A DNA stretch of 64,000 nt from Nitrosopumilaceae archaeon. Its GTDB lineage: Archaea; Thermoproteota; Nitrososphaeria; Nitrososphaerales; Nitrosopumilaceae. Of this stretch, positions 35,085-62,528 are shown one piece after another. Under the pieces are notes generated by a model. The model was not told where the DNA came from. It made no database searches and saw only the letters and a list, made by a program, of their open reading frames with translations. Position 1 is the first letter of the stretch; the number at the start of each line of letters is the position of its first letter. A program made the translations under genes and the position numbers. The DNA lies in the NCBI GenBank assembly GCA_965208905.1, contig OZ242365.1, positions 1,216,001-1,280,000 of the forward strand. The letters run 5' to 3'.

Positions 35085-35235
35085 TGAACTGTCCCATTAA
35101 TGGCGCCTGTCCCAAAGTGGCGCCTAGAGTAGAAACTGGGGTCTGATTGTTTTGTAGATATTTCCTACGTGGAGTGGAAATGAGGTCGAAACAGTGGAGT
35201 GGAAATGATGGTAGGTGACCTGTATTTCCAGTCCA
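35085..35235 (+). repeat. Cassette-boundary element copy A (complete)
   Basis: TGAACTGTCCCATTAATGGCGCCTGTCCCAAAGTGGCGCC head, 3 direct GGAGTGGAAA-type boxes, 1 inverted box. Confidence 0.9.
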
Positions 35236-35651
35236 GATCTGTCAACCTTAAAACCTACAAAGTTATTTCTATTTTGATGGACAAGGAACCTTCTGATGCG
35301 CAAGTCAGTTGTAATGCCTCCCAGAATAAATGGCCTCCAGTACACAGATACACACCATATGTGATATGTGGTGACGTTTCTCAACCATACTTTAGTTTAG
35401 ACAGAATCATCATATTCGGAGTGACATTCCTCTGACAGAACAGGTCTTCAATACGACGCTTGGAAAAGCTCTAAGACGCGTCATACCAGAATGGAATGCC
35501 AAAAACGTACTTATACAACAGACCAAGACACTACAGGAATCCTCCTAAGGTTTTGGGGATTAGATACATGAGCATACCACCTTGTGGGGCTAGTGCTCAA
35601 TGACTATCCCGTGCACTGTTAATATATGACCACATGTGTCGGTATAACAAC

Positions 35652-35909
35652 ATGGACGTAGATACACTCAAAAGATCCATAAGTCCCAGGTACGGACCCC
35701 TCTACACTATTGGCATTACCAACGATCCGAAAAAGCGTAAGAAGGAACACGAGCAAGACGGTAAGGATACGAAGTATTGGCATGATTGGGCAGTAGACAG
35801 TAAGAGCGTGGCAGAGGCTGTGGAGAAATACTTCATAGGTAAGAAAACGAAGGGTGGTACCGGCGGAAACGTTGATGGCTCCAAGACCGTTTACGTGTAT
35901 ATATTCTGA
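35652..35909 (+). CDS. Small GIY-YIG-like protein, paralog 1
   Basis: YTIGITNDPKKRKKEH...AEAVEKYF...GGTGG...TVYVYIF; T-tract after stop. Confidence 0.7.
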   Translation: MDVDTLKRSISPRYGPLYTIGITNDPKKRKKEHEQDGKDTKYWHDWAVDSKSVAEAVEKYFIGKKTKGGTGGNVDGSKTVYVYIF

Positions 35910-36006
35910 TTTTTTTTGTAGGTGCTTCCATGTGTTTGAGTTGCTAAAACCAATTGATGTTATGTGTTGTCTACTCGATTATATAATTCCCGAAGTTGGT
36001 TGGTAC

Positions 36007-36100
36007 TGGTAAGAAACGCTGACCTGTTGTATGGTTGGGAAGGTGCTGACCCGGAGTGGAAACGGGGGTTTTGCACAATCAGGCATGCAGAGCTGAAATT
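36007..36100 (+). repeat. Cassette-boundary element copy B (partial)
   Basis: Two GAA..TGACC motifs, CCGGAGTGGAAAC, then ATCAGG spacer as in copies C, D, E. Confidence 0.7.
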
Positions 36101-36170
36101 AATTCGCGTGTAATGTATGACCGGATCCGCCCATCAACTGTAGTATGCGGACATCGGTGGTGAGTTAATA

Positions 36171-37406
36171 TTATGTGCTGGCATAATTTTCCGCCCGCTC
36201 CAACGCAAGCTTTACATCCATATCGCTAGGGTCGTGCTTTTCTGCCTTTTTGAGCCACTCTTTGGCATCCTTGTACTGTTTTAGTTTGAAATACTTCATG
36301 CCGACTTCATACGCGGTGTCAACGGTATCCGCCAACTCATGCGCCTTCTTGGAAAATTTAATTGTCATATCAGGGGTAAACCCAAGCTCCTCCAGCCTGC
36401 TGGTGGCCAACCAATATGCATCTGCTGAGTCGGCGCATATCTCAAAGGCCCTATCCACATGCCCCTGATAATCCTTACCTGCTGCTCTGAACCCGTCCAC
36501 TATATCGCACATGATCCGCGCCGCATCCATGCGTAGCCATTTGGCCTCTTTCTTCTTGCTCGTGGGAATTACCTTCACATGCTCCAAGAGGGAGTTTAGT
36601 GCCTGATGTAATACGTCTCCAGCACCTTTGTTACCGATATGTGCCAATGATCTTCCGTAACACATTAGATACTTCCAGTCGGAGTGACCGCGCACTAATC
36701 TCAGACTGCTCACCGCATCCTTATGCCTACCTGCCTCCGAGAGCTCCCGGCCACTGTAAAAAGCATAGTCGTCGCGACCAAGCACAACCTCAAACAGATC
36801 CTTTGCCAATGCGATGCATACTCTTGGGCTGAGATTCGTGTCTTCCAGTGTGTGGGTATGGGTGTGGCGTCGCTCGAACAGATCATCATATTCTTCCACA
36901 TCGATTTTTCTTTCATCAAGTACACGGTTGGTGACATCTAAACTGTTGACCGCCTCCACACTCTGGAAGTTTAGCGCGGATGCTGCAAGGGACTCTATCA
37001 GCATGGGTTGCCGTATATCACATGCTTCGTCAATCAGGGTATTAAGATCCTTGATACTAATAGTAAAACTACCGTCATTGGCAATGTCCTGAACATGTTT
37101 GCGGAGCACCTCATCATGGCGGCGCGTGTTATCCACACACCAACTGTCTGACCAGTCCAACATATCCATCACCAACAGCACATTGAGTATGAGTTCTTGC
37201 GGCATGGGTTCGCCGTCCCCATACATGAATCTCTTTTTTGTCCTGCAAAACTCCTCGATCATAGTACAGACTGCCACCGGAACCTGCTTTTTGAGAACTG
37301 GAGGGAGTCTGTACGCCTCGATATGCTCCTCAAGACGGTGCAGGTGGCTCAACGTCCGCTCATACGTGAGGTGTGAGAAGATAGTGTTTCTGTTTTTGTG
37401 TCGCAT
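36171..37406 (-). CDS. HEPN-like domain plus TPR protein
   Basis: IEEFCR helix and RHTHTH (Rx4H) motif; C-terminal TPRs (YEVGMKYFKLKQYKDAKEWLKKA). Confidence 0.6.
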   Translation of the reverse strand: MRHKNRNTIFSHLTYERTLSHLHRLEEHIEAYRLPPVLKKQVPVAVCTMIEEFCRTKKRFMYGDGEPMPQELILNVLLVMDMLDWSDSWCVDNTRRHDEVLRKHVQDIANDGSFTISIKDLNTLIDEACDIRQPMLIESLAASALNFQSVEAVNSLDVTNRVLDERKIDVEEYDDLFERRHTHTHTLEDTNLSPRVCIALAKDLFEVVLGRDDYAFYSGRELSEAGRHKDAVSSLRLVRGHSDWKYLMCYGRSLAHIGNKGAGDVLHQALNSLLEHVKVIPTSKKKEAKWLRMDAARIMCDIVDGFRAAGKDYQGHVDRAFEICADSADAYWLATSRLEELGFTPDMTIKFSKKAHELADTVDTAYEVGMKYFKLKQYKDAKEWLKKAEKHDPSDMDVKLALERAENYAST

Positions 37407-37964
37407 TATGGTCTATGATGCGCGCCCCATTGCAAAAATGTTTTGTTCATTTGTCGAATGTTATGGGTACACGTTTAGGCTAAGCGAACTTTGCGTCACA
37501 ATCATACCTGAATACCACATTAACCCATTCCTTTGATAACATAGTTGCAGGCAGACATGGAGTGCGGCGCGGACACATTCTGACAGTTCCCACCCTAGAT
37601 CTCTGTCTTGATGTTGGATTCTGCGACAGTTAACTACTTGGCGGTGGCCATGTACCAGTCGAGTATGGGGTATGCGGACCTCCCAGTACAGGTACATCAC
37701 ACCCACGGCATCCTGGAGCGGGAGCTCACCAGACTGGACGCCCTCTCCACATGCGACCTCCATACGCTGGTGCCGCGCAGACCCATACAGTACGACCCAC
37801 TGCAGGGAGTCTCTACCGAGTGATTAGTGGTTGTTAACTTGTTGTGTGGCAAGGTGCTGGCCACAAGAGGCCGCAATCCGGAGACTTACATAGATGGGTA
37901 GACAGGGATCCGGCCCACATGGGCGTTCAGACGGTTAATATGGCCATCCCATAGTTTTGAGCCA

Positions 37965-38234
37965 ATGGACAAGAACGAACTCAAGGAGTGGATAGAGGCC
38001 ACAAGAGGCAGTGTGCCTTATGGCGCGTGGACTATCGGCATTACCGTCAATCCGGCGGAACGCAAGAAGGCGCATGAGGCTGACAACAAGAATGTGGTGT
38101 TCTGATGGCATCGGGAGGCCAACAGCAAGCAAGTAGCACAAGATGCGGAGACATACTTCCTGGACAAAGGGATGAAGGGCGGCAGAGGCGGCAATATTGG
38201 TGACAACGAGACCGTCTATGTGTACATATTCTGA
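37965..38234 (+). pseudogene. Small GIY-YIG-like protein, paralog 2, internal TGA
   Basis: MDKNELK...WTIGITVNPAERKKAH...VVF*WH...AETYF..GGRGG...TVYVYIF; stop at 38103-38105. Confidence 0.8.
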
Positions 38235-38335
38235 TTTTTTAGATGGTTAGAGACGGCTAGGACACTCTATAGACGGAACTATGACAGATGTAATGGTCTT
38301 ATAGAGATGATCGATTGAGTGGGTGCGGCGGCGCC

Positions 38336-38830
38336 CTATGATATGGTTATTGGTCGTCTAATCTTTAACTTTGTTGCAATATCAATAAGGTTTCGTGTTT
38401 TGTTTTCAAGTTCGTTGTTTTCACCGTACTTCTTCCACATGTGAGATCGGCTGTTCTTTAGTACTGCCGGATCGTCGAACTTCTCAACCAGCCAAGATTC
38501 TATCTCAATAATTTGGGCAACACCTGTCGTATAGTTATCCTCATCTGGAAGTTGTGTGAGGTTGTTTTCAATATTAAGACGCAACAGTTCTAGCCGCCGT
38601 ACATGCCTTGTGAAATATAGTTCGAGCATCATCGCCTTCTCGTCACTGTCATGCATGTCCATGGATTTGGAGTTAATCGTGCTTGTAATTTTTATCAGTT
38701 CACGTACGTTGTTGTTTATTGTTTTTTTCACATACCTTTGCCGTTTATTTTCATCTGACCTTCTACTCCACCATACATATAGGCCAAATCCAACACTAAA
38801 CAAGGAGAAGTATGGTATAATTTCCTCCAT
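38336..38830 (-). CDS. N-terminally anchored hypothetical membrane protein
   Basis: 164 aa with TM at N-terminus; 21 bp downstream of the next ORF. Confidence 0.7.
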   Translation of the reverse strand: MEEIIPYFSLFSVGFGLYVWWSRRSDENKRQRYVKKTINNNVRELIKITSTINSKSMDMHDSDEKAMMLELYFTRHVRRLELLRLNIENNLTQLPDEDNYTTGVAQIIEIESWLVEKFDDPAVLKNSRSHMWKKYGENNELENKTRNLIDIATKLKIRRPITIS

Positions 38831-38851
38831 GATCTGTCCATCTACCGTATA

Positions 38852-39544
38852 TTATTTAGGTGTTTCAGGATCAAAAGTCAGATCATCCAACATGCGATAC
38901 CAGTCTGAGTCCTCAATATCAAGATAAAACGAAATTGTAAAATCTGTACGCATATTCATGGATGCCGGCTTATTCCGTTTTATTGGGCCAAATTCGAAAA
39001 TACCAAATCTTACCTTGACGGTCTCGGCCACGTTTACAAATTCATCAAACTTGTCATGGGTTGAGCCGCACGTGTTTTGGATTAGTTCGTAGTCCAGTCG
39101 GAGGAGATTTGTGCTGTTATGATATCTGATTCCATCCAGTCCAAACTCTAAACTCATTTTTTTAATAAAATTATACCGATTCACCCGAGTCAATTTCTCT
39201 CTGATATCATTTACTAATTGATGATTTGTTAGTGGCATTTCATCTATGGGTCCTTCCAAACCATGCAGGTTTTTTAACAGCACGTATGCATCCTCTCTCG
39301 CCTCCGTTATTCCGAGCAAATACAATTTCCTTGTTTTGGTACGAAAGAGAAAATTGCATAATGCCGTTCCTATCTTTGGCTTTTGTATCCACACTTTTCC
39401 GTGTATGTTACCCTCTTTCAATTTTACATCTCCTATTCTAGGGAATCGCGATTCGTCATTATTCTCTACTTCTTTAAGCGCATTAAAAATTACATCAGCA
39501 TCATTAGTCACTATTTCGTAAACCTTGGCTGAGCGACTTATCAT
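38852..39544 (-). CDS. Hypothetical protein
   Basis: 230 aa ORF, probable operon with 38336-38830. Confidence 0.7.
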   Translation of the reverse strand: MISRSAKVYEIVTNDADVIFNALKEVENNDESRFPRIGDVKLKEGNIHGKVWIQKPKIGTALCNFLFRTKTRKLYLLGITEAREDAYVLLKNLHGLEGPIDEMPLTNHQLVNDIREKLTRVNRYNFIKKMSLEFGLDGIRYHNSTNLLRLDYELIQNTCGSTHDKFDEFVNVAETVKVRFGIFEFGPIKRNKPASMNMRTDFTISFYLDIEDSDWYRMLDDLTFDPETPK

Positions 39545-39836
39545 TCACAAGCCTCCGTTATTTAGCCTGCCGAACATGAAGCACCGACCATTCAGCCGCC
39601 TCCCGCTCTTCATATCCAATGCATCTGACATGGGCAAGACCATGGTGTGGATCCGTTCCATGGCGTGGTCTCACAGCATGCCTACATAACCCCACAACTC
39701 TTATCTGGTTCACTATTCGTCAAATTAAGTGGACTAGGGTTGGGCACTTAAGTGTATGGGTCCCTGACGGCTGTTAAGTTAGTGTGACCTGGGATCTGTT
39801 GTTAAATCTGTGACTTGGGTGTTAAAGGAGTGATCT

Positions 39837-39851
39837 GGGGGGGGGGGGGGG
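39837..39851. repeat. G15 homopolymer
   Basis: 15 consecutive G. Confidence 0.9.
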
Positions 39852-39970
39852 ACAGTGTTAAATCTGCGAGGTCGTGTCGGGGGCGGTGCTTGTGCTAAGC
39901 CTAAACGCGTACGACGGCGCGGCCAGATGATATAAATAGCCACGCTGCCGATCACGCCCAATGAACAGAA

Positions 39971-40228
39971 ATGAATAGTAAGGGCATAATTGACGGCATA
40001 CTGGATGTTATAAGGCAGGACAGTGGGCCAATATGGTCCGTTGGAACCACATCAGATCCGGAGGCATGTAGGAAAAAACACAATGCCAAAGGATGGCATG
40101 TATGGGTAGCAGACGATTTGGATACCGCCTTATACGTCGAAGCCCATTTCAACCATACGAAACTAACTGGACATGGTTTGGGTTGTCCAATGAATGGCCC
40201 GAGCATCTTTGTGTATCTGTTTTGGTGA
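39971..40228 (+). CDS. Small GIY-YIG-like protein, paralog 3
   Basis: WSVGTTSDPEACRKKH...WHVWVAD...ALYVEAHF...FVYLFW. Confidence 0.65.
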   Translation: MNSKGIIDGILDVIRQDSGPIWSVGTTSDPEACRKKHNAKGWHVWVADDLDTALYVEAHFNHTKLTGHGLGCPMNGPSIFVYLFW

Positions 40229-40360
40229 GTAGGATACTCTGTACTGGTCCCGATTCTCGGCCCTACACCCTAGGAGCCGAACCCTTGGCAACTGGAAAGT
40301 TAGTGGGGGATGAGATCTCTTGAAAAGTTGGGAGATGGCGGCTCGACGGATACAATATAG

Positions 40361-40621
40361 TGAACTGTTCAGTTAACAGCGCCTGTTCAATTATAGCGCC
40401 CGGAGTGGAAACGTCGGTAGTGCACGATCAGGTGTGCGGAGTGGAGATGAGGTCAAAATGGTGGGGTGGAAATGGTGGCCGTATACCTAGGTTTCTAGTC
40501 TAGGGGAGCTGGGAAGATACGGTGACCTGTACAAAAGTGGGAAATGTGTGACCTAGAATCTGGGAAATGTGTGACCTACCTACATTTCCACTCCGCTCAA
40601 TCAACCACCATTTCCACTCCA
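40361..40621 (+). repeat. Cassette-boundary element copy C (long, composite)
   Basis: TGAACTGTTCAG head, 3 direct boxes, inverted box, 3 GGGAA..TGACCT motifs, 2 further inverted ATTTCCACTCC boxes. Confidence 0.9.
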
Positions 40622-40658
40622 GGTGTAATTGGTTACCACGAAGCATTACGTAATATTA

Positions 40659-41219
40659 CTAATCACCATCATAAGCACGAAACAGCTTCAGGAGCCACCG
40701 TTTGTTACACTCATTCTCTTTGATAAACTTCTTGACGGATTTTATTAGATTCTCTAAACTAGCCTCCATAGGTTCAGACATTGAACCAGGTAAGCGATAA
40801 AACGGTCTCAACACATCTGGATCCGACTCCCTCATAAGCTTACGGTTGTATGAATCGACAGCTCTATGTAAGTGGTGAACATCTTTCTGCAATTTGTGAC
40901 TCAGATATGAGATTCCACCGGAGTTGGCTAAACCCTCATAACCACTCTTTTGTAATGGTAGAAGGACATCCCGTAATGTCCTCGGTTGTGTAGTGTGAGG
41001 TCCCACTTGTAATGGTAGAAAGATGTCCTTACCTGAACCAAGTATATTTTTGGAGACTCTCATGGTCTCATACATTACGTCAAGATCTGCAAGCAACATC
41101 TTCGCAAAGCGTATACGATGTAATACATTGCGTACATGCCAGTGGAGGATGAAGAATACAAGTCCCACACCAATAGCAACGACTTCAATAATTGTCGGCA
41201 ACCAGTCAGGAGGTAACAT
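40659..41219 (-). CDS. N-terminally anchored hypothetical membrane protein
   Basis: TM IIEVVAIGVGLVFFIL followed by a helical domain. Confidence 0.65.
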   Translation of the reverse strand: MLPPDWLPTIIEVVAIGVGLVFFILHWHVRNVLHRIRFAKMLLADLDVMYETMRVSKNILGSGKDIFLPLQVGPHTTQPRTLRDVLLPLQKSGYEGLANSGGISYLSHKLQKDVHHLHRAVDSYNRKLMRESDPDVLRPFYRLPGSMSEPMEASLENLIKSVKKFIKENECNKRWLLKLFRAYDGD

Positions 41220-41325
41220 CACTATACATGGTGTAATGGTTACGTAAATACCCCCGCTACACACAATCGACAATCATAAATTAGATGTTACAACACCCAT
41301 CAAAAATTAAAAAATGAAAAGTTGT

Positions 41326-42627
41326 TTACTCTCTTTGAGCCTTTGTTGCTACCTCTATGAGGGTCTTCCACTTGTTTGTACCATCTATGATAATACCCGC
41401 GGCTTCAGCTGGAGTTTGACCATCTGCTAGTCCAAGGTGTGGGCGTACACAGTTATGATATATCTTCAAGCCACTTACTATGGGGGAGTCCTCGCGCTTG
41501 AGACCACGCGCTGCCTCCTCGCGATACCTGAGTGTATTACCATTGAATGATTCCATTTGGTTGTTGTGGTGGATGCCGTCAAACGCGACATCGTTTACAT
41601 GTTGGGTTTCTTTGTGTAGGAAGTTCTTGGACTTGTACTGTTTCTCCCATGCGTTGTGAAAGTTGGCCGCACCATCCGATATCAGAGTATCTGGAACTTT
41701 ACCTGCAATCTCCTTTGCATGTGCAAACATGGGCGCGACATCATCATTTCCTTTGTGTTCTGCAACCATCTTTGAAATCCAATACCTTGTACCAGAGTCC
41801 AGCATAGCGAATAGATATCTCTTCCTTCCCTTGACCTTCATGTGTAACTCATCAGTACGCCATGCCTCACTGAGCCGTGGGTGGACTGTATCGATATATG
41901 ACTCCATTAGTTCTGCATACGTAGAGCCCCAGTTCTGTATAGTCCTGTAGGTTATCTTTAGTCCCTTCTGCTTTAGATGGTTTGCCACCTTCCTAGATGA
42001 TAGTCCGGCAAAGTACATTCCTACTGCTGCGCAGACATCATCAGGCGTAGCGCGCTTCCTCTCGAATCCAAGGTTTTGGATGAATCGTTTCCCACATGTC
42101 TTGCATCCATACTGTTGCTTCTTGCCTCGTACACCCTTCTTGATGATGTGTATGGAGTCGCAGAACTTGCATCTGGTATGGTTATGTGGCTGTATTATAC
42201 GTCGTTCCCCATTATGCCACTGTACTGCCTGAATGTGCTTACATGTACTGCCCGTATGCATATGGTCTGGGCATGAACATATCCATCCATTGCCAAAGTC
42301 GCGTACTTCATAGGATTCATCCTTGCTTTGTGATTTCACTAAATAGTGGTCTGATGCGATACGTTCAACCTGTCCGGCGGCTTGATGTATCATCATACCG
42401 CGGTCAGCGCGTGCCTTCATTCCAAGCCGCTCTTCCAGCGCGTATGCGTGCTTACAATATTGTGTATTATCCGGACAGTTACAATCCCAGCCGGCCGTAG
42501 TACGGCATAGTGTATATTGTACATCTGGTGTGGTCTGTGAACAAACCTGATACGTAGACTCATCCATACGATACATCTGATGTTTCTTTTTTGTTATGTT
42601 TATTCCTCGTTGTTTTCTATAATTCAT
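41326..42627 (-). mobile_element. IS6-family DDE transposase with two SWIM fingers and a Zn ribbon
   Basis: WDCNCPD..YCKH, WICSCPD..CKH, CKFC..CKTC; WRTDELHMKVKG..YLFAMLD, ISDG, NNQMES. Confidence 0.85.
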
Positions 42628-42835
42628 TTGTGTGGTAACGTATCGGTAGTATTTAAGGTGGTAAAAGTCAATCTTAAGGTATGGAAGTACGCCTGTGAAA
42701 GTTGTGGCCATACACGGACTACGCAGAACGAAGTTTATTCCAGTATGGAAGTTAACATTCCGTACAGTTGCCAGATAGTTGGGACTAGATGACTGGAGGT
42801 TGCCAATCGATTGGTTTGACACTGCTTGAAATTAT

Positions 42836-43552
42836 TCAGTTTTTACACTCTACATACTTGGACATCTGTAAGCCGACAACAACAGATGTGAAAAAAATGA
42901 ATCCTGCTATACACCCAAACATCAAGGCCTGTGGTATGTTATTCAGACCTACACCAAACAGTGCTCCAAAATACGACATAACACCTGTAAATAACGAGCA
43001 ACCAAACAACTTAGTCCATTGCTTGGTAGGTAGTTGTAGTCTAAACATAGTATATGTCAAACAATGTGATCCGTTGTGTGATTTGGTAAGGTTATCCAAA
43101 TTCTTTTGTAGTTTGGCGCACATCTGTTCTGCATCATCTTGTAGTTTCATGTAGTTTGCCATGATGAATGGGTTTGGCTTACCGTTTGCCAACGCAGACA
43201 TGCCCAATGTGTCCTTCTTTAACAAATCAAGATATATGGAGAACGTCTCACTCGTCAACAAATTACCTGATTGCTCAAAGTGTTTACGCAGCCATTCGTA
43301 AGAGTCCAGCGTAAACCAGTGTGTATACTGCTTTATTCCAGTGGATGCAGGGTGTGCCTGCCACCTGTTGTTGCACTCCTTTAGGAATCGCCACAACGTG
43401 TCGTATGCCATCAACTGGTCTTGGATATGTTTTTGGCGCTCCTCACTCTTCTGTCTTCGTGTTTGGTCTAGGAATATCCACCTACTACCAAACACACCAA
43501 TTATACTTCCACCCAAGCCTGCTATAATTGGTATCAGAATGTCAAGAACCAT
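42836..43552 (-). CDS. Membrane protein, paralog of 58425-58943
   Basis: N-terminal TM; shared WLRxHFxxxGxLL segment; C-terminal TMs. Confidence 0.65.
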   Translation of the reverse strand: MVLDILIPIIAGLGGSIIGVFGSRWIFLDQTRRQKSEERQKHIQDQLMAYDTLWRFLKECNNRWQAHPASTGIKQYTHWFTLDSYEWLRKHFEQSGNLLTSETFSIYLDLLKKDTLGMSALANGKPNPFIMANYMKLQDDAEQMCAKLQKNLDNLTKSHNGSHCLTYTMFRLQLPTKQWTKLFGCSLFTGVMSYFGALFGVGLNNIPQALMFGCIAGFIFFTSVVVGLQMSKYVECKN

Positions 43553-43555
43553 TAA

Positions 43556-43822: not shown

Positions 43823-43823
43823 A

Positions 43824-43963: not shown

Positions 43964-44011
43964 CTCAAATAGACTGGTTGTACACCTACTGATGTGTGAT
44001 TGGCATCCTCT

Positions 44012-48786: not shown

Positions 48787-48827
48787 TTCATCTCAACACA
48801 CCTTTATAAAACAATTTATTCAAAACA

Positions 48828-53778: not shown

Positions 53779-54114
53779 ATGATAACACAATCAGCAATAT
53801 TAGCCATAACAGGTTTAGTACTATTTGGTATAACCAACGCATATGCAGATCACGGATGGTACGTATCTGCTGAAAGTGAAGTGTTCGAGAATCACTTTTC
53901 AGGTGCTCAGATTATTGAAGTCATAATTCACGGAGGTTCATTAAACACACCTATTGTAACTGTGGACGATAATCCGCTTCCAATGTTTCAAGGACAAAGT
54001 GGTAACTGGTACGGTTACTTTGTAGAGAAAGATAAGGCAAGTGAGGCACAAGACCTAGGTCTGTTTGACTTTGGTATGAAGGCCGAGTTAAATACTTATG
54101 AGTGTCCTACAATT
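53779..54114 (+). pseudogene. N-terminus of a thaumarchaeal secreted/surface protein truncated by repeat E
   Basis: Signal peptide, YVSAESEVFENHFSGAQIIEV...MFQGQSGNWYGYF; ORF tail reads through the repeat. Confidence 0.6.
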
Positions 54115-54256
54115 TGGACTGTCCCATTAATGGCGCCTGTCCCAAAGTGGCGCCTAGAGTGGAAACGGTGGTCTAGTGAGATCAGGAGTGCGGAGTAGAA
54201 ACGAGGTCAAAATTCTGGAGTGGAAATAGTGGTCGTAGACCTATATTTCTAGTCCA
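54115..54256 (+). repeat. Cassette-boundary element copy E (complete)
   Basis: Head nearly identical to A over more than 40 bp; 3 direct boxes; inverted ATTTCTAGTCCA. Confidence 0.9.
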
Positions 54257-54333
54257 GGTGTAGATTGCTCTCTACAACCATGAGGTAACGGCGCGTTGTT
54301 CGATTTATATATCACACACACATCAAGGCTCAC

Positions 54334-54846
54334 ATGAAATTTGAGGAGTTGGATGCCGAAACCAGAAAGTGGATGCTGATCGAATTTGAAGCCGAAGAGA
54401 GTAGTAAGCCCTTCCGTCCCCGCACCCTAGATCACACAGGTCTAGCGAAGTTTGCGGAGATCATGAGGAAGGCGATTCAGACTGGAGACATACAGAGTCT
54501 AGAGGGCGATTTGTCACCATATGTAGTGCACTCCCCTGTTAACGCCGCCCACCGATTAGCCCACTCCGAGTTCACCACTTGGTACACAAGAGGGTTCGCA
54601 AGGCGGCTTATAGCGGAAGGTGTTGAACAATGTGAGGTTTACCGGGGAGAGGGGGCGCGGCAGCCTAGATGTGCCTGCTCACGTCTTGAAGGTAGTGTAG
54701 TGAGTGTAAAGGCTGTCTATGCCGGGCACCGGGTACCGTACCATCACAATGAGTGCAAGACGTCTAACTATGACGGTCCGCCAATCACAATCCCCAATGG
54801 TCCGCTATGCCATCACACAATTAGGCGCGCTCATAAATGCGAGTAG
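54334..54846 (+). CDS. Hypothetical protein, Cys/His-rich C-terminus
   Basis: 170 aa; TTTATATA about 25 bp upstream. Confidence 0.7.
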   Translation: MKFEELDAETRKWMLIEFEAEESSKPFRPRTLDHTGLAKFAEIMRKAIQTGDIQSLEGDLSPYVVHSPVNAAHRLAHSEFTTWYTRGFARRLIAEGVEQCEVYRGEGARQPRCACSRLEGSVVSVKAVYAGHRVPYHHNECKTSNYDGPPITIPNGPLCHHTIRRAHKCE

Positions 54847-54922
54847 ATGCATGGGCTGTAACAACTTTGCATGCTGAGACCTAGTGTAACATCTGCGTGC
54901 TGAGTGGCCGGAGTCAGATCTT

Positions 54923-55246
54923 CTATCTAATTCTACCAAACTTGACCGGTTTGAAGCCCTTACTACCACAACTTCGCCGTTTGTTTTTTGATCTCCTAAA
55001 CGGTGGTGATATGTCTATCCACCGCACAGCCGGTCTTGTGTGGTATATCACGCGTGGTTTGGTTATCTGGGCCTCTACTTCATCCATACGCTGGAGCAGC
55101 TCCATGTCTATCTCGCCACCCTCGCTGACCGCAGCAACCACCTTGTCTAGCAGGTTGCGGGTGTTTTTCAACTCCTGTTCCATCTTGGTGATTTGTTCGG
55201 TGAATTGTTCTAGTCTTGTCTCAATACCTACATCATCATTTGACAT
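54923..55246 (-). CDS. Hypothetical coiled-coil protein
   Basis: 107 aa; TTTAAAA about 25 bp upstream on the minus strand. Confidence 0.5.
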   Translation of the reverse strand: MSNDDVGIETRLEQFTEQITKMEQELKNTRNLLDKVVAAVSEGGEIDMELLQRMDEVEAQITKPRVIYHTRPAVRWIDISPPFRRSKNKRRSCGSKGFKPVKFGRIR

Positions 55247-55383
55247 GCTAGCTCAACGGGCGTGACCATTTTAAAGATTGAGGTTTGATGAAGATTCCCA
55301 CCACACAAACTTTCTACCGGATCCCATCACACAGTAAGTTTCCAGTTCTTCCCCATTTCTTCATTTTTTAGAATTCATTCGGC

Positions 55384-55509
55384 TGAACTGTCCCATCTAC
55401 AGCGCGTATCCCAAAACAGCGTGTGGAGTGGAAATATGGGGTAGAACTGATCAACCATCGATCAGGTGTGCGGAGTTAGGGTTGAACTGGGAATATACGT
55501 CAAGCCGGT
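55384..55509 (+). repeat. Cassette-boundary element copy F
   Basis: TGAACTGTCCCATCTACAGCGC head, TGGAGTGGAAAT, GATCAGGTGTGCGGAGT. Confidence 0.85.
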
Positions 55510-55654
55510 GTCGGGTCACTTTTTGTCGAAGTCAACTCCTGACACCACCAGAGTTTCAATTCAGAAGTTTTATTAAACCCACTACCTTATTATACATACG
55601 GATCCCGTCAGCCGTTGCTGGCTACGAAATCTAGAATTTCAGGGACCGACATTC

Positions 55655-56410
55655 TTATCTAACCACGTACCCAGTGGAATAGAAGCTTCCATCCAGCCGA
55701 AAGTACTTTGATTTGATTGACTTCCATCGATTCTGCTTCTCATTGTTGGATACTGCCTTGATTTGAACCGCATAGGCAAAAAAGTCCGCAAGTTGCAAGA
55801 TTGGGTGGTCGGCTGGTTCACCACTTTTGATGTTACCGAGTATGTTGTTCAATTCAACATGATGTCTTCTCGACAATGCCCATCTCAACATCCTCATTCC
55901 CCTTTGAACTCTGGCACGATCAGCATGAGTGAACCGTTCATAGATGACAGAGCCGGTTGATTTTTCATCAACCAAAAAGTCTTGGAATCTCTCCAACATC
56001 ATCAACATGGTGTATTCTTTGGGGTGTGCAGGTTCTATGTACTGTTTATAGTGGGCATCCAAGTCCAGCGTGACTGACAGGAGTGTGCAAGGCGACTGAA
56101 TGATTATGTTGAATATGTCATCGGCTAGGCGGAGTCTACTTTCACCACTTATTATACTGTATTGTGATGCTCCTTGGATGAGGTCATGATAGTGGAGTTT
56201 GAAATCTGGAGCCAATACCTTCGGTTTCAGGTATTTCTTTATCACTGACTGTATCTGCTTCTCCACCTCACCCACATCCGCATCAGGCACTATGATTCCG
56301 GCCAAGGTAAAGAATGCGGAACTGTTTTTGTATTTGGGTCGGTCTTTGACATAAGGTCCTGGATCTCCAGACTCGTCAATGTACAGAGAGTGTGTCATAT
56401 ACCCGCGCAT
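55655..56410 (-). CDS. DUF3800 (RNase H-like) protein
   Basis: LYIDESGD at N-terminus, LQLADFFAY at C-terminus. Confidence 0.85.
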   Translation of the reverse strand: MRGYMTHSLYIDESGDPGPYVKDRPKYKNSSAFFTLAGIIVPDADVGEVEKQIQSVIKKYLKPKVLAPDFKLHYHDLIQGASQYSIISGESRLRLADDIFNIIIQSPCTLLSVTLDLDAHYKQYIEPAHPKEYTMLMMLERFQDFLVDEKSTGSVIYERFTHADRARVQRGMRMLRWALSRRHHVELNNILGNIKSGEPADHPILQLADFFAYAVQIKAVSNNEKQNRWKSIKSKYFRLDGSFYSTGYVVR

Positions 56411-56463
56411 TAACCTGCTTTCTATATAGTGTTTATGATGTATGAGTTTTCCCGTAATGGATT

Positions 56464-56512
56464 TAGGGTGGAAACATAGGCGATACGAGTGGGGCAGAAA
56501 TAATAGTCAGGT
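56464..56512 (+). repeat. Cassette-boundary element copy J (degenerate)
   Basis: TAGGGTGGAAAC-N14-TGGGGCAGAAAT, same spacing as box2-box3. Confidence 0.5.
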
Positions 56513-56632
56513 GAAACACATGCCTAAACGTCATTCTGAGGTAAGCGCCATATTTGTGGGACGGTTCATCAAAAGTGAACAGTTGCAAGTCTTTAGCGAG
56601 GACATCAAGCTCCGCAAAACTCAGTGCGTTCT

Positions 56633-58240
56633 TTACATCCACATGATGGTGCAGTCAAGAGATTCAGAGATGAGTTGTACAGTTATAGCCATGCGTTCGT
56701 TGTTCTTGCACCCCACAAGTGCATTTGGAGGCATCACCTGCATAACACAGATGTTGTCTTTCAAGTCCACCCCGTCCATGCTTTGCCATACGAGTTCGTT
56801 ATACGGGCGTTGCGCAATCACAAAATTCCGCCCGGTTGGGGGAAGTTGTTTTATCTTGCCGTTGAGCCATTTTAGGGCATGCTTCCATTCAAAAACACCA
56901 TCCTCGTCCCCACATCGTCCTAGATTGTTTATGTTGAATCGCTCACCCCATTGTAGTGATTTCTGTATATTATAGGACATTTCCGTCATGCCGTCCCACG
57001 CCTCAATGTGGATATCCTTCCCATACTCGTCCTCCAATAAGATATCTACCGTTTTGTCAGATACCTTTCGTTCCACCCCTACCGATTTGAACATGCCGGA
57101 CTCATAAAACAACTTGGCCAACTTCGTGTGCCAAACATTCCCCTCTTTCCGCCGTTTCCAATCCCTAACCGTGTGCAACTTGTGCACCAGTATACACTTT
57201 CCTACTATCTTGGTATTTGGATCCTCAAGCCATGCTTCTAAGCCATCTCTCTCCTTTTTCTCGGCGGCTGTCTCAATAAACCCTATCTTGAATGTGTTAT
57301 TGCCACGCCTCCAAAACATATGATGGATCTTGGCATGAATACGAGCGATGTAGAGGTCCAACCAAGCATCCACCAAACTGATAGCATTCGCACGCTTTTG
57401 ATCAGACACCACGCTTGCATGTTCAAGATCCAACCAAGCATCCACCAAATCGGCAGTTTTTTGTTTGACTTTACTCGCCTCGTCTAGTTTGGACTGCCAG
57501 TGGTCGATGCCGAATGGACCCTCACCCATTACAAACATCATGTTGGCAAGAAGTTTTAACGCTACATCTGTTTTTTGCTTCTCACAGAGGAACATCCATT
57601 GCAGCGCCACCGGTAGGTCGTTGGGCAATACGGCAGCCACGCGCGGCGCTAAAAACCTTGGCTCTCTCGTCTTCACCAACTCATGTATGTGCCGTACACC
57701 CTCGGCGTCGAAGTGATCTCTGCATTTCCGCAACCCAAATAATATCGCCGTAAGATCTTTTGCACCTGCCTGTTTGATGGCCAAAACCAGCGCTCCCCAC
57801 ACTTTTGCTTGATTGGTCTCCATCATCTTGCCAAATACATCTTGTAGACAAGTGGTACTAGCAGCTTTCAGAATAAGAGTACAGCCTTGTTGTACCGAAA
57901 TTTTATGCTCACTGAGATATAGTTGTACTACCTCTACCCACAACCCGTCGTCCGATCGGATCGGCGTTTCTGACAGCGCTTTGATTAATCTTACTGGTGG
58001 TTTGTCTTTCCTATACCGCTCATAACACAGTTCTAACGCATCCTCCACCATGTCATATCCGCCTTTTTGAGCCTCCCTTATTTTTTCCACAAACTCGTCT
58101 GGTGGGATATCTCTGTACTCTCCTGTCTGGTTCCACCGTTTCAACATGGATTTCAAGTCTTTCATTTCACCACCTAGCTTAGCATCAAATATTAACATTC
58201 GATGTATTTGAAATAAAACCACATTGAGACTCAGGGTCAT
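56633..58240 (-). CDS. Helical protein with C-terminal PD-(D/E)XK-like domain
   Basis: H...ER...VDILL......IHIEAW; start may be 58165. Confidence 0.55.
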   Translation of the reverse strand: MTLSLNVVLFQIHRMLIFDAKLGGEMKDLKSMLKRWNQTGEYRDIPPDEFVEKIREAQKGGYDMVEDALELCYERYRKDKPPVRLIKALSETPIRSDDGLWVEVVQLYLSEHKISVQQGCTLILKAASTTCLQDVFGKMMETNQAKVWGALVLAIKQAGAKDLTAILFGLRKCRDHFDAEGVRHIHELVKTREPRFLAPRVAAVLPNDLPVALQWMFLCEKQKTDVALKLLANMMFVMGEGPFGIDHWQSKLDEASKVKQKTADLVDAWLDLEHASVVSDQKRANAISLVDAWLDLYIARIHAKIHHMFWRRGNNTFKIGFIETAAEKKERDGLEAWLEDPNTKIVGKCILVHKLHTVRDWKRRKEGNVWHTKLAKLFYESGMFKSVGVERKVSDKTVDILLEDEYGKDIHIEAWDGMTEMSYNIQKSLQWGERFNINNLGRCGDEDGVFEWKHALKWLNGKIKQLPPTGRNFVIAQRPYNELVWQSMDGVDLKDNICVMQVMPPNALVGCKNNERMAITVQLISESLDCTIMWM

Positions 58241-58424
58241 ATTTTTGGAGAGTCATAGTTCTTGACTCCTTGGAAACCTCAATACCATCAAGCCTTAGTC
58301 ACTTTTTTGAGGTCATCATATCTCACACCTCCAACCACTTTTTTTGACCCTTACTTCTCATCTCCCATCTCAACACCACTGCAACCCATTAACACCCATA
58401 TGTCCCCCACCGATTTAGGTACTT

Positions 58425-58943
58425 GTGATTGAATCCTGGGGGCCTGTGATCGGGGCTGGCATCATTGTAGTGGGAGCGGTGGCGATGCAGTTGTTTATCT
58501 ATCGTCGTACCATCAGTGAACGCCGTAAGGAACGGGAGCGCGGGCGGGTAAATGCCGTCAAGGACCTGTATTGGGGGCTACGCGCAATATATTCCCAGAG
58601 GGTGTTCACCAGTCATAAAGGCATTAAGATAGACCCGTTCTACAATTTTCTGATATACCCAGAAGACATTGACTGGCTACGGCAACACTTCCACAAGAAC
58701 GGCCACCTTCTCTCTGCCGAAATACATGAAGCATACCATGCTGAAATATCAAACACACAAACCCGACCAAGATTGCTGAACCCAGACAATATTCCCCCTG
58801 ACATTAGGAAGTTTGTTTTGTCCGGCCCGGTTTCTGGCGGCAACCTACCACTACTCTTTCTGACTACCAAGAAAGATCTATTCTCTCTAGACTCAGACAC
58901 GAAGCTACCAAACGATGCGGTACTTATCCCGAAAGACCAATGA
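58425..58943 (+). CDS. Membrane-anchored protein, paralog of 42836-43552
   Basis: TM plus WLRQHFHKNGHLL. Confidence 0.6.
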   Translation: MIESWGPVIGAGIIVVGAVAMQLFIYRRTISERRKERERGRVNAVKDLYWGLRAIYSQRVFTSHKGIKIDPFYNFLIYPEDIDWLRQHFHKNGHLLSAEIHEAYHAEISNTQTRPRLLNPDNIPPDIRKFVLSGPVSGGNLPLLFLTTKKDLFSLDSDTKLPNDAVLIPKDQ

Positions 58944-59097
58944 TGCCATGAACCTTCTGCATTCTGCTAGGTAATCTCGGCCTCTGTTTCTCACGACGAG
59001 AGCAGGTGTTGTGAGAAGATCCCTACCTGACATACTGGCGGATGTTCTATCAGGGTCATGTCCGGGATCATCCCCAGAAAACTCCAGCCCATTAGGC

Positions 59098-59340
59098 CTA
59101 AGAGTCACCACTTGGTATCTGAGTCTTTATGTTGCTCCCAAACAAATAACCGCCGATTGCGCTCATCATGGAGAGTAGTATATGACTAAAAATCAGATAG
59201 TCCGACGACACGATGCCGGCTGCCTGCAAGCACACCATCACGAAGGAACCTGCTATGATGATACCTATGAGACGCATGAAAAATTTCTGCATCGGAGTTA
59301 TTCGTTGCTCTCGTATTCTGCGAACCAAAGTCAACCCCAC
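59098..59340 (-). CDS. Small two-TM protein
   Basis: Two hydrophobic helices, AIGGYLFG. Confidence 0.5.
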   Translation of the reverse strand: MGLTLVRRIREQRITPMQKFFMRLIGIIIAGSFVMVCLQAAGIVSSDYLIFSHILLSMMSAIGGYLFGSNIKTQIPSGDS

Positions 59341-59540
59341 GATATTGGTCCTCTACATCTGGGGCAGGGGTTGGTCCCCTTCTTCACCACTAGATTACAG
59401 TATGGACAACGATAAATTTTGGTCTTGGAGTCAGTTATGGCCTTCGCCAACGCGATACCCAGTATAATCGCACCTGCTACCGCAACCCATGCCACGGAAC
59501 CTGTCTTACGGAGAACTATTTAACTTCTTGCGTGCACAGG

Positions 59541-59727
59541 TTCTGGGAAATCTGCGTGTGATGGGTGAGCCTGGGAAATGCGTGTGATGAGGTCAAGAGT
59601 GGATCTCCTCAAGAACGTTCGTTGACCGACTGGGGAGCTGTCAAAAGGAGCTGGGAAGAAATGCTGACCTGTAGAAAAGTGGAAAAGATCTGACCTAGAG
59701 TGGAAACGTAGGTTACACCAAGCCGGT
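59541..59727 (+). repeat. Cassette-boundary element copy G
   Basis: GGAGCTGGGAAGAAATGCTGACCTGTAGAAAAGTGG matches the middle of copy C; TAGAGTGGAAAC. Confidence 0.75.
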
Positions 59728-59804
59728 CAGAGTAGGCATAGTGAAGCGGTCCCGCGTGAGGGACGGATGTCGTCAAAGTGGATGGTACATAATGAGATGA
59801 GCAG

Positions 59805-61124
59805 CTACGGGGAGTTGTCTGCCGGTACCAGAAATCCAGATTCCCAAGAAACACCATCATCCTCATAATTCTTTGAAAATATCACAATGGGTATATCATC
59901 ATTAGGTCGTTCCTCCCGTATCTTGACTTGCTCTTTTTTTATCGCCGCGCGTTGGTCTGCCTTGGTTGAGTTGTGGTTGACGATGACGGTTATCCAGATT
60001 GTGTTTGCTCTCAGGCGGTATTCTGTACTGCGACCGGTTGTTTGCAACCAGCGGAAGGCTCCCCAGGCATCCCCCTCAAATGCAGTAGCCTCTTCCTCTG
60101 ATAGATCCGCAAGAGCTTCAAATATTTTTTTGGACGTCAGGATATTGGTCACTGTCTCCGCCCGGGTGTCGGCCACTTGATTCTCGATGACATCAACCAG
60201 TTCGACTACAGATGGTGGCATACCGGCCATCCTTTGCCTGTATCTCGAAATCATCTGGCCCATCTCAATTTGGATGGAGTCTGATTCAAGAACCCTCTTG
60301 CGGTCCTTTTGGACTGCTTTTTGAAACCTTCTCTCCCGTGCCGGTGAGGGCCGGAGTGAATATGGAAATGTAATCTCAACACGACTCTGTAGGAGCCCCC
60401 AGAAGTCGCCGTCGTCGATTGTGTGCGGACTTGCAATAGCCCCGCTCTTGTTGATACGCGTTCCCGTCCAGCCCTTCAGGACATGGGGGTGAACGGTTGT
60501 GACGAAAACCATGTCTGCAAGCTTGGCATATGTGTATATTCTAGTGTTGCTAGTGACCATCGTACCATCGGTGGCGCGACGCATGTACCAGTTGGTCTTT
60601 TCATGTATGCCGTCTGTAATATCCATACTTCCCAAGATGAGAAGGTGGCTCTCATAGGGATGTACGGCCTGCCTATTATCCAACAAGAACTCCCGCCATG
60701 TTGCTTCCGCCGACTCTATCTGCGGACCAAATTTAGGGTGGTTTGATTTGAATGCTTCATATTCCATCCTCAAGACTCTCCAACCCAGTGATATGGCAAA
60801 CCGCTCCAACCAACTGCCGTATTCAAGGCGGCTGTTACTGCCATTGTGGAATGGATAGAATATCTTGTCCGCGAATAATGTCTCAAGACTGGAAAATCGT
60901 TGCTCACAACTACTACACAGCATACGATATCTAAGAAGATCCTGAGCATGTTCTGCATTGTTACCGTCAACTCGTGCAAGGGTTTTGGTCGCGGATGTGT
61001 CCTTAAGCCACTTGCCTACGAATTTGGGTATTATGTGGCTTGCCTGAAGATCGCCGCTGCGTCCGCACAGAGCACATGTTTCGATGCTACGGTCCTGTGC
61101 ATCCTTGGAGATCACGTCTACCAA
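59805..61124 (-). CDS. HNH-like zinc-binding nuclease domain protein
   Basis: CALC...SHIIPK...LCSSCE. Confidence 0.65.
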   Translation of the reverse strand: MVDVISKDAQDRSIETCALCGRSGDLQASHIIPKFVGKWLKDTSATKTLARVDGNNAEHAQDLLRYRMLCSSCEQRFSSLETLFADKIFYPFHNGSNSRLEYGSWLERFAISLGWRVLRMEYEAFKSNHPKFGPQIESAEATWREFLLDNRQAVHPYESHLLILGSMDITDGIHEKTNWYMRRATDGTMVTSNTRIYTYAKLADMVFVTTVHPHVLKGWTGTRINKSGAIASPHTIDDGDFWGLLQSRVEITFPYSLRPSPARERRFQKAVQKDRKRVLESDSIQIEMGQMISRYRQRMAGMPPSVVELVDVIENQVADTRAETVTNILTSKKIFEALADLSEEEATAFEGDAWGAFRWLQTTGRSTEYRLRANTIWITVIVNHNSTKADQRAAIKKEQVKIREERPNDDIPIVIFSKNYEDDGVSWESGFLVPADNSP

Positions 61125-61156
61125 TGGCCTTCACCACTTATATTATACGCGGTTAG

Positions 61157-61299
61157 GTGGGAGTGGGAAAACACGGTGACCTCGTGAAATTTGTGACCCG
61201 GAGTGGAAATGGAGGTTTGCAGAATGTACTGCGTGGAGTGGAAATGAGGTCTAGTATGATGAAGTGGAAATACAGTAGATGACCTATGTTTCCGGTCCG
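61157..61299 (+). repeat. Cassette-boundary element copy H
   Basis: Two GAAA..TGACC motifs, 3 direct boxes, inverted GTTTCCGGTCCG. Confidence 0.85.
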
Positions 61300-61327
61300 C
61301 AGACAGTCCGGATGGATGCCCTGGCCG

Positions 61328-62404
61328 TTAATTACAGTCGGGCAAGAGACTGTTGTCCTCTTGCAGGAATTTGAAGGCCGCACTCAACGAGGCCCGTACC
61401 GCGCCTATATTGTCCGGCTCAAATCGCTGTTTCACCAACACGATTCCATTGCCGGCAGTCTGGAGGGTCTGGCCGTCAACCTCCACTGTTTCAATATTGG
61501 CATCGAACACGCGTTTTATATCGGCCGCGGGTTCTAGCGAAACCGAGATCAGCGCCATTCCGTCTTCCATCCTGTCTTTGATGATTTTCACCATCTCTTT
61601 GTCTCTATATGAGAACCCGATCACCAACAACACGTCAACCTTCTCAATCTTCTCCTCAAAGCGTTTCCACAAAGTAGAGAACGGCTCCCTGCCATAATCC
61701 TTCGCGCCCTCGGTGGGGGCTACCATAACATCCTTCTTGTTATCCCTTGCCGCAACCATTGTACCCTCCACGATGTCCCCGTCAACATTCTCATGCCAGA
61801 ATATGGAGCCGTGTAGTTTTATCAGGTGCATGTAGTTGTCCGCGTCGGTTGACCACTCGTCTCTCCAGACAAAAACCCCGCGGCCTTCCTGTCTGAAACC
61901 ATTGACTACAACAAGATCCTTCTTGTCGCAGTATTCCTCCATCACACGATCATAGTTAGTCGTAAACACCAGAAATTCACCCATCCCACCATCACCAATA
62001 ACCGACCAAACCATGTCGTACATCTGCCTAATCGAGTTACGGGAATCCGATTTGATAATGAATGATTCAAGCAGGACATCGCGGATGACGAGGTGGACAC
62101 GCCTCAAGGCATTGATTGTGTTCGTTAATAGACCATTTGCATTCATCACCAGAAAGACCGGCCTGATGTTGGACACATCGTCACGCAGGTGCAACATCCG
62201 CTCTATCCCATCGTATAATTTCTCAACATCTTTGTAGTGGTCGTGGTTAATGATGGTTTCTGTAATGCTATCCAGATTGTATGCATCTTTACCCGTATTT
62301 TTGACACGCGCCCGTACCTCGTCCATCAACTCCGTGGTGGTAGGCAGGTCCACAAACGCCGAAGCCCCGGCTCCCAGAAAAAGGGCGGTGCGCATATGCG
62401 GCAT
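61328..62404 (-). CDS. SIR2-like (SIR2_2) protein
   Basis: FLGAGAS, FTTNYD, IKLHGS, IGFSYRD. Confidence 0.88.
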   Translation of the reverse strand: MPHMRTALFLGAGASAFVDLPTTTELMDEVRARVKNTGKDAYNLDSITETIINHDHYKDVEKLYDGIERMLHLRDDVSNIRPVFLVMNANGLLTNTINALRRVHLVIRDVLLESFIIKSDSRNSIRQMYDMVWSVIGDGGMGEFLVFTTNYDRVMEEYCDKKDLVVVNGFRQEGRGVFVWRDEWSTDADNYMHLIKLHGSIFWHENVDGDIVEGTMVAARDNKKDVMVAPTEGAKDYGREPFSTLWKRFEEKIEKVDVLLVIGFSYRDKEMVKIIKDRMEDGMALISVSLEPAADIKRVFDANIETVEVDGQTLQTAGNGIVLVKQRFEPDNIGAVRASLSAAFKFLQEDNSLLPDCN

Positions 62405-62481
62405 GTGGTGCAGACCATAATAAACCATTCTGCCGCATGGATCTGTCAAAAACCAGAGTCCTATACAACGCTGTCAAAAAA

Positions 62482-62528
62482 GTGACTTGGGGTGGAAATG
62501 GTGGTTGTATACCTACGTTTCCAGCGTA
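62482..62528 (+). repeat. Cassette-boundary element copy I (partial)
   Basis: TGGGGTGGAAAT-GGTGGTTGTATACCTAC-GTTTCC, near-identical to box3-box4 of copy C. Confidence 0.75.

Follow-up and report, generated by a model that had tools for sequence, protein, structure and literature searches.

Co-oriented repeats in a defence-rich region of a Nitrosopumilaceae archaeon are probably the composite ends of cargo-carrying DDE transposons

A series of related repeats, nearly all pointing the same way, punctuates the defence-type genes of a Nitrosopumilaceae archaeon, and the question is what kind of mobile unit such repeats belong to. The stretch analysed here (the window) comprises 64,000 nucleotides of contig OZ242365.1, G000:C1:1216001-1280000, from the single-contig genome G000 of 2.21 Mb; coordinates refer to the window unless they are marked as genome positions. 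An initial annotation of the sequence had listed ten such intergenic units and proposed an integron-like system that captures or shuffles genes at its own recombination sites. Our analysis leads to a different answer. With a probability of roughly 85%, the repeats form the composite ends of transposons of one family, which carry cargo and are moved by a DDE transposase, and the region is the interior of a single transposon. The idea of a mobile platform with its own recombination sites survives in that defence genes are stacked between co-oriented units, whereas on this reading the sites are the ends of a DDE transposon and are not integron-like.

The transposon is 34,881 bp long and inserted as one piece, as is evident from its ends, its target duplication, an empty site, its transposase and the recurrence of such an element in a sister species. 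It occupies genome 1251085-1285965, in the window 35085..64000 on the plus strand, and its right end lies 5,965 bases outside the window. The 40 nt at its start match the inverted last 40 nt at 40/40 positions. The left copy of an 8-bp target-site duplication, GATACGTC, lies at 35077..35084, and the same 8-mer follows directly after the right terminus at genome 1285966. The insertion falls between a spondin-domain gene and a DUF6659 gene. In the sister species G005 this site is empty: the flanks (left 98%, right 96% identical) overlap by exactly 8 bp, and the alignment holds a single GATACGTC. In three other public metagenome runs, each from a different study, contigs (long ones in X5 and X10, one of 1.8 kb in X15) follow the left flank as far as 35085/35086; because the element opens with two bases that also come next in the empty site, 35086 is where the match is expected to end. 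The parts of the stretch that these runs leave uncovered are uninformative, and the contig joints found between units represent other repeat copies in those metagenomes and not deletions of the locus. A change in gene content exactly at a repeat, which the initial annotation had proposed to look for, is thus present at 35085, in the empty site of G005 as well as in the contigs of the three runs.

The same kind of insertion is found elsewhere in the genome. Inverted pairs of a loose terminus motif (715 occurrences on the plus strand, 726 on the minus strand) no more than 60 kb apart were scanned for identical 8-mers directly outside. Three pairs were recovered, where about 0.2 would be expected by chance (an estimate from ~14,000 pairs tested), and all three have long matching termini that enclose a transposase and restriction-type cargo. 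The first, at genome 157876-161563 (3,688 bp), is flanked by the duplication GTCAATAC and carries the transposase and a methylase-HNH gene. The second, at genome 1100770-1109752 (8,983 bp), is flanked by GATATGGT and carries the transposase, an Eco57I-type enzyme and a DUF5655 gene. The third is the 34,881-bp element itself, loaded with two type III systems, SIR2 and other cargo.

According to the initial annotation no cognate recombinase was visible in the window, yet a transposase of the cognate family is encoded at 41326..42822 on the minus strand. The gene is intact, with a probable true start near 42714, and its product combines a SWIM zinc finger with a DDE domain. It matches Pfam DDE_Tnp_IS240 at 43.2 bits (cut-off 27), SWIM and also the rve domain; over the copies scanned the DDE_Tnp_IS240 scores range from 43 to 54 bits against the same cut-off. 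In 15/15 aligned relatives D277, D318 and E359 are invariant, and the CxC..CxH (SWIM) and CxxC..CxxC motifs are likewise kept in all 15, the window copy included. At least 12 paralogues reside in G000, and 646 relatives were found at E<=1e-10, some of the thaumarchaeotal ones carrying the NCBI name of IS1 or IS6 family transposase. The transposase is probably a distant relative of the IS6 (and IS1) families of insertion sequences (IS). A second transposase, of 433 aa (L046:4505-5806), adjoins the right end of the 34,881-bp element 4.5 kb past the window, so that right end and transposase together lie 4.5-6 kb beyond it. The copy inside the window has a right end of its own, and between the two lies a passenger open reading frame (ORF) of 204 aa (40659..41273, minus strand) with no family match. 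A search of solved structures by sequence yielded nothing relevant (best E 0.024, an antibody chain), and a related-locus search with one protein returned 2 loci only.

A complete element is ordered as left end, cargo, transposase and right end. Both termini consist of two or three tandem boxes of ~20 nt, which form a true inverted repeat of ~40 nt starting with (T/G)G(A/G)ACTG and would be the putative binding sites of the transposase. Inside the terminal boxes lie inner boxes of the form GGAGTGGAAAY..GGTC. The left end is composed of terminal boxes, inner boxes at 36 and 25 nt and a palindromic pair, and the right end of inner boxes at 26 and 18-19 nt followed by inverted terminal boxes. All inner boxes point one way along the element, both in the 9-kb and in the 35-kb transposon. 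The terminal boxes vary in type between elements and match within each, whereas the inner box is constant throughout. Long and short types can be distinguished: in G000 a box array at the transposase-distal stop occurs in 4/4 long-type copies and 0/9 short-type copies, and the short-type 3.7-kb element has terminal boxes only. The most compact arrangement, a copy in G008, holds left end, transposase and right end within ~1.2 kb.

The family is widespread in the genome and restricted in range. A profile built from four window copies gave 41 hits at E<=0.001 in G000 on both strands. The extended box, allowing up to 2 mismatches, occurs 87 times genome-wide (44 on the plus and 43 on the minus strand), compared with 4 in a shuffled genome; the units are therefore co-oriented locally and not in general. 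The initial annotation had counted against its own proposal an IS end scattered in both orientations through the genome, and this is what the units turn out to be, ends of an insertion-sequence family lying on both strands. The unit is present in 7 of 9 congeneric genomes and in none of the 31 searched genomes of other genera. In G000, 74 of the 84 boxes outside the origin lie at 1.1-2.0 Mb, in the chromosome half centred on the point opposite the origin. A replichore bias of box orientation was considered and rejected: the counts are 25+/14- on the right and 17+/28- on the left replichore, but without the 35-kb transposon the right one holds 8+/9-, and such clustered boxes provide no evidence of a bias.

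Within the window the 12-nt box YGGAGTGGAAAY, with at most 1 mismatch, is found 21 times, 17 on the plus and 4 on the minus strand; 100 shuffles of the window gave a mean of 1.14 and a maximum of 4. All ten units of the initial annotation exist, at the positions listed there or a few bases off, and their box spacings are borne out, with starts 36 and 25 nt apart and an inverted box 21-29 nt later. The inverted box and the last direct box make up a palindrome with a 3-nt spacer. The full form reads head TG(A/G)ACTGT, two tandem units of ~18 nt, three direct boxes and the inverted box. The ten differ in build. Four are full forms with a CTGTCCCA..GGCGC head (35085, 40361, 43824 and 54115); the copy at 55384 has a head of TG(A/G)ACTGT type and is truncated, those at 36002, 59541, 61157 and 62468 have other head types with GGGAAG..GCTGACC-like or CTGTCAAAAAAGTGAC-like boxes, and the copy at 56464 consists of boxes without a head. 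The common orientation applies to the ten units listed, but an eleventh, at 40503-40621, is reversed and abuts the 40361 copy. Seven of the ten had been placed about 30-150 bp beyond the stop codon of a gene on the minus strand, which is approximately correct: the gaps in the ORF table are ~28 to 175 bp. No Rfam family matched window positions 33000-64000 at the gathering threshold.

The outer left end (35085..35235, plus strand) is made up of two tandem terminal boxes with the head TGAACTGT, three direct GGAGTGGAAA-type boxes and one inverted box. It is followed on the same strand by a decayed left-end-like unit (36002..36107) with a head of GGGAAG..CTGACC type, which recurs together with the next 465 bp of the adjoining gene at genome 1767264-1767790. 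The full left-end unit at 40361..40500 (plus) has the variant head TGAACTGTTCAG.. and is 89% identical to genome 1695225-1695364 over exactly 140 bp, with sharp boundaries. Adjacent to it, at 40503..40621 on the minus strand, lies the right end of an inner, inverted transposon copy, with three terminal boxes and then two GGAGTGGAAA boxes, laid out like the right end of the copy at genome 1100770-1100895. Two further full left-end units on the plus strand have termini like the outer right end, at 37/40 positions for 43824..43966 and at 39/40 for 54115..54259; 43824 is the exact point where contigs of X10 and X15 start matching. The remaining plus-strand units are a truncated left end at 55384..55490, with the head type that bounds TnpB-only elements; a relic of two degenerate boxes 25 nt apart at 56464..56508; a unit at 59541..59716 with two sets of terminal-type boxes, the first resembling a transposon terminus in G005, and then one GGAGTGGAAA-type box; a full left-end unit at 61157..61300 with a head of GGGAA..GTGACC type; and a short unit at 62468..62527 with one CTGTCAAAAAAGTGAC-type box and a palindromic box pair.

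Why should one transposon hold so many left ends? Inside the 35-kb element 17 of 22 boxes lie on the plus strand, and of the five on the minus strand three pair with a direct box in a palindrome, while two come from the inner transposase copy, which is inverted. Nine inner left-end-like units are present, all oriented as the outer left end. Such stacking is also seen in other elements. For instance, contig C73 of the sister species G002 contains a 12.4-kb element with matching termini, both abutted by seven nt (TTTGGGC), in which three co-oriented left ends are combined with one transposase and one right end; its cargo includes a helicase-methylase fusion, a Schlafen/AlbA_2 protein and a trypsin-pentapeptide protein. 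The 9-kb element at genome 1100770-1109752 likewise has one inner co-oriented left end. We lean slightly towards stacked left ends being a regular product of element growth. The nine inner units would then be former or alternative left ends left behind by stepwise growth, which may proceed by two routes. In the first, a second element would insert the same way round and recombination between the two transposase-right-end segments would delete one of them. Alternatively, the transposase would pair the right end with a left end further upstream and so capture the DNA between. That the heads are of mixed types speaks for the first route, or for units that arrived independently, while the two matching heads, at 43824 and 54115, would allow the second.

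The inner units could also be independent elements of the kind known as miniature inverted-repeat transposable elements (MITEs), which would have arrived singly in a permissive, non-essential island and come to share an orientation by chance or selection. Separate copies of 140 and 168 bp, sharply bounded and 89-91% identical, do exist at unlinked loci, short complete units with inverted terminal boxes occur elsewhere in G000 (e.g. genome 1698525-1698698), and the heads of the inner units are mixed. However, if the arrivals were independent, the co-orientation of all nine inner units with the outer left end would have a chance of about 1 in 500 by our own arithmetic. Moreover, the stacking recurs with the same polarity (2/2 inner units in G002 and 1/1 in the 9-kb element), one unit travels with the end of its adjoining gene to another locus, and no 8-bp duplication surrounds any of the five units examined. 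Independent hopping is therefore an unlikely source of the inner units.

Several observations weigh against the transposon reading as well. The five inner or solitary full-form units examined have no 8-bp duplication of their own. The inner heads are of several types, and since only those at 43824 and 54115 match the outer right end, regarding all units as alternative left ends of one transposase leaves some of them unaccounted for. For the inner inverted transposase no left end was recognised, as no terminal-type boxes occur in 42640-42900. The best NCBIfam model for the window transposase is IS6, at 84.8 bits and below the cut-off of 125, followed by IS1 and then by the IS1/IS1595 zinc-binding domain; in PMC6807381, Harmer and Hall hold that the archaeal 'IS6' elements do not belong in the IS6 family and are distant relatives at best. 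A search for the cargo (35085-64000) in five sister genomes matched only transposases, units and a cyclophilin paralogue. Finally, a left and a right end 14.7 kb apart, at genome 1695225-1709895, have termini identical at 40/40 positions and flanks that agree at only 4/8; this pair is either a rearranged element or two halves from different insertions.

The inner box leads to the replication origin. In G000 the 10-mer GGAGTGGAAA has 50 exact occurrences, where base composition predicts 4. Three of them fall within the 270 bp immediately upstream of the sole orc1/cdc6 gene; the remainder are mostly in mapped transposon units, and a handful are solitary. The chromosomal origin of G000 lies at genome 410800-411075 (L082:4300-4575), upstream of the single orc1/cdc6 gene and with the PolD small-subunit gene next. 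Its two direct boxes, with a distance of 61 nt between them, are accompanied by one inverted box, an AT-rich run and, ahead of the start codon, a fourth box; this arrangement matches the layout of archaeal origins given in PMC4010727. Layout and box core are kept upstream of orc1/cdc6 in six genomes of three genera (G000, G005, G002 and G007; G023 and G017). The 12-nt core YGGAGTGGAAAY of the transposon inner box equals the core of the origin box at 12/12 nt, with the G-run placed 2 nt earlier in the transposon box. Copies of the 12-mer number 0 to 7 in genomes of other genera and 11 to 40 in 8 of 9 congeners, with 0 in G003 (87% complete). This distribution across genera indicates that the origin box is old and family-wide and that the genus-specific transposons copy its core. 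Compared across species for co-variation between origin and transposon boxes, the core proved invariant.

Could the arrays instead be secondary origins, or relics of integrated plasmids or viruses that replicated by Orc1/Cdc6, and not parts of transposons at all? The identity with the box beside orc1/cdc6 and the excess of the 10-mer, three copies of which stand at the origin, would be accounted for. Against this, every array lies between terminal boxes and cargo with fixed spacing, and in elements with target duplications this applies to both ends. The origin box is family-wide, but the arrays are restricted to a single genus. They are accompanied by neither an AT-rich unwinding stretch nor an initiator gene, orc1/cdc6 being single in G000. 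Such an origin of the arrays is very improbable.

Returning to the arrays as parts of transposon ends, the inner boxes may be a putative host-factor site for Orc1/Cdc6 and not a site of the transposase. A host-factor site is suggested by three features: the inner boxes are constant across differing terminal boxes, polar along the element and equal to the host box. This role is possible but somewhat doubtful. If it applies, host Orc1/Cdc6 would bind the inner boxes and load the replicative helicase, which could let the host replisome copy an element of tens of kb, either as a strand-transfer intermediate or as an excised circle. Equally tentative is the combined picture in which, besides such initiator-loaded replication, the stack of left ends would record the growth of a transposon that enlarges its defence cargo by taking over upstream left ends, a gene-capture device based on transposition and not on site-specific recombination.

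The original proposal, in which each repeat is an integron-like cassette site where a site-specific recombinase moves single-gene cassettes, has in its favour the alternation of gene and element, the polarity of the boxes and the defence genes between units, and can nevertheless be set aside as scarcely credible, since Pfam detected neither a tyrosine nor a serine recombinase in the 39 ORFs scanned (29 in the window, 31228-64000, and 10 in L046), the unit is one terminus of elements with inverted termini, 8-bp duplications and a DDE signature, units lie on both strands genome-wide, and the intervals between them are not single promoterless cassettes, holding from 0 to 8 genes as well as gene fragments and complete insertion sequences.

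How do these transposons compare with known systems? The nearest is the IS6/IS26 family, with which they share an 8-bp target duplication (here exact in three elements, one of them with an empty site). Their transposase passes the cut-off of Pfam DDE_Tnp_IS240 but not that of the NCBIfam IS6 model, and their tips, GGAACTGTCAAAAA, GGGACTGGGAAG or TGAACTGTCCCA, are similar to the GGnACTGT..AAA type. PMC7986276 gives as IS6 traits 8-bp duplications, short repeats of 14-20 nt, GG tips and cTGTt and caaa motifs, and describes IS26 as a builder of cargo arrays punctuated by co-oriented repeats, as in the present case. The repeats themselves differ, since here tandem boxes take up ~40 nt before the inner boxes, which are not inverted. 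Members of the IS6 family measure 0.7-0.9 kb, or up to ~1.7 kb in long clades; they have one gene and carry cargo only between two whole IS copies. The present units, in contrast, measure 3.7, 9.0, 12.4 and 34.9 kb, with a single transposase beside the right end. Their left and right ends are unlike each other, ~120-150 nt each and built of repeated boxes of two kinds; zinc motifs of SWIM and CxxC type are present in the transposase; and the punctuating repeat is the left end and not a whole IS as in IS26 arrays.

In Tn7, one end has spaced and the other packed binding sites, and the target duplication is 5 bp. Defence-cargo transposons of the Tn7-like kind (Benler et al. 2021, PMC8649781) resemble the present ones in asymmetric multi-box ends and a large, variable, defence-rich cargo. 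They differ in that the duplication here is 8 bp, the host is an archaeon and Pfam recognises no element-encoded transposition protein besides the single transposase; no TnsA, TnsC/AAA+ regulator or TniQ was found in the scanned ORFs of the three G000 elements or the G002 element. Archaeal origin recognition boxes (ORBs) and mini-ORBs share their core with the inner box; the transposon arrays, unlike ORBs, have no unwinding element or adjacent initiator gene and exist in dozens of copies in one genus. There is a precedent for a replication initiator's site in a transposon end. The outside end of IS50/Tn5 carries a DnaA box, to which the host replication initiator binds as a host factor. That is a single box in a bacterial element, while here each end has three or four, all polar, in an archaeon, and a like function would be by analogy. 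Integrons also stack defence-type or adaptive genes between co-oriented repeats; here, however, the repeats are transposon ends with direct boxes and one terminal palindrome, and no integrase was found in the 39 ORFs.

Our literature search found no description of cargo-carrying archaeal transposons of such kind, although the supplementary tables of PMC6563490 may list the transposase under IS6 or IS1. That work, by Krupovic et al. (2019), lists 244 IS in thaumarchaea and states that composite transposons with passenger genes were not detected in archaea, thaumarchaea included. A 35-kb archaeal transposon with two restriction-modification systems and SIR2 aboard, and with an empty site as proof, provides a tangible means by which defence islands could form in ammonia-oxidising archaea. 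Its relatives move other defence genes. The polar inner boxes, identical to the origin-box core, make a link between transposition and the archaeal initiator directly testable. Stacked left ends may likewise serve as a model for the growth of cargo transposons.

The cargo of the 34,881-bp transposon is a defence-rich but mixed load. A type III restriction-modification pair occupies 44012..48305 on the minus strand (res 44012-46381, mod 46530-48305), with PADLOC scores of 437.8 bits for REase_III and 460.5 bits for MTase_III. A second type III mod gene starts at 62938 on the plus strand (62938..64000), and mod and res run on to L046:4075 past the window. Perfect 19-nt tandem repeats, at 48420-48472 (2.8 copies) and 62713-62767 (2.9 copies), sit ~115-225 bp upstream of each mod gene, their units being related in gene orientation. 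The SIR2-family defence gene at 61328..62449 (minus) matches Pfam SIR2_2 and PADLOC SIR2 (86.4 bits), and its paralogues at two other loci are likewise beside units. A type IIG (MmeI-like) restriction-methylase is represented by its C-terminal 88 aa (43556..43822, minus), the gene being cut off at the head of the 43824 unit; the fragment scores 82 bits with Pfam MmeI_C and covers positions 819-898 of 912 of the PADLOC REase_MTase_IIG profile. Directly next to it is a membrane-like ORF of 238 aa (42836..43552, minus) that recurs beside other units. A DUF3800 gene (Pfam, 59.8 bits) is at 55655..56410 on the minus strand. The load further includes a cyclophilin-thioredoxin fusion and a matrixin-cupredoxin protein, both ordinary-looking paralogues, and several ORFs without family match. 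Nested in the cargo at 51322..52543 (minus) is an IS3-family insertion sequence (NCBIfam IS3, 215 bits), unrelated to the host transposon, with 13 genome copies of 99.7-100% protein identity and ~ten-fold contig depth in X1.

Two genes of the cargo bear signs of patchwork. The TPR-containing protein of 411 aa at 36171..37406 (minus; all Pfam TPR matches below gathering cut-offs) is encoded by a gene whose halves have ~91% DNA identity to two different loci, genome 1767264-1767728 and 1587981-1588449, both of which abut a repeat unit. It seems that the gene was pieced together, or repeatedly broken, by these elements. An ORF of 690 aa at 48828-50900 joins cyclophilin, PsbP-like, signal-peptidase-like and thioredoxin parts, each with paralogues elsewhere, and its first 367 aa are 88.6% identical to a copy at genome 366931; the whole ORF resembles a mosaic put together within the transposon.

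Other members of the family also show traces of activity. In G005 a segment of at least 3.8 kb is present in three 100% identical copies (L041-L043), each with the family transposase, a small zinc-ribbon ORF whose stop is the TGA of the unit head, and an ISH3-family transposase; no target duplication was seen at the three loci. In G000 two identical cargo-transposon copies of 3.6-3.95 kb lie at genome 1337692-1341644 (3,953 bp) and 1851328-1854929. Their flanking 8-mers are swapped, GTCCGTTG..AAAATAAC in one against AAAATAAC..GTCCGTTG in the other, which is only suggestive of recombination or replicative transposition between the copies; the copy at genome 1337692-1341644 has two candidate right termini 351 bp apart. 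Elements of ~1.44 kb with TnpB only, at genome 394383-395827 and 402423-403864, are bounded by the two-unit head as inverted repeats, and the 8-mers flanking the former, TCTTACAG and TCCTACAG, are alike at 7/8 positions. TnpB thus seems to ride as the cargo of a non-autonomous member of the DDE family.

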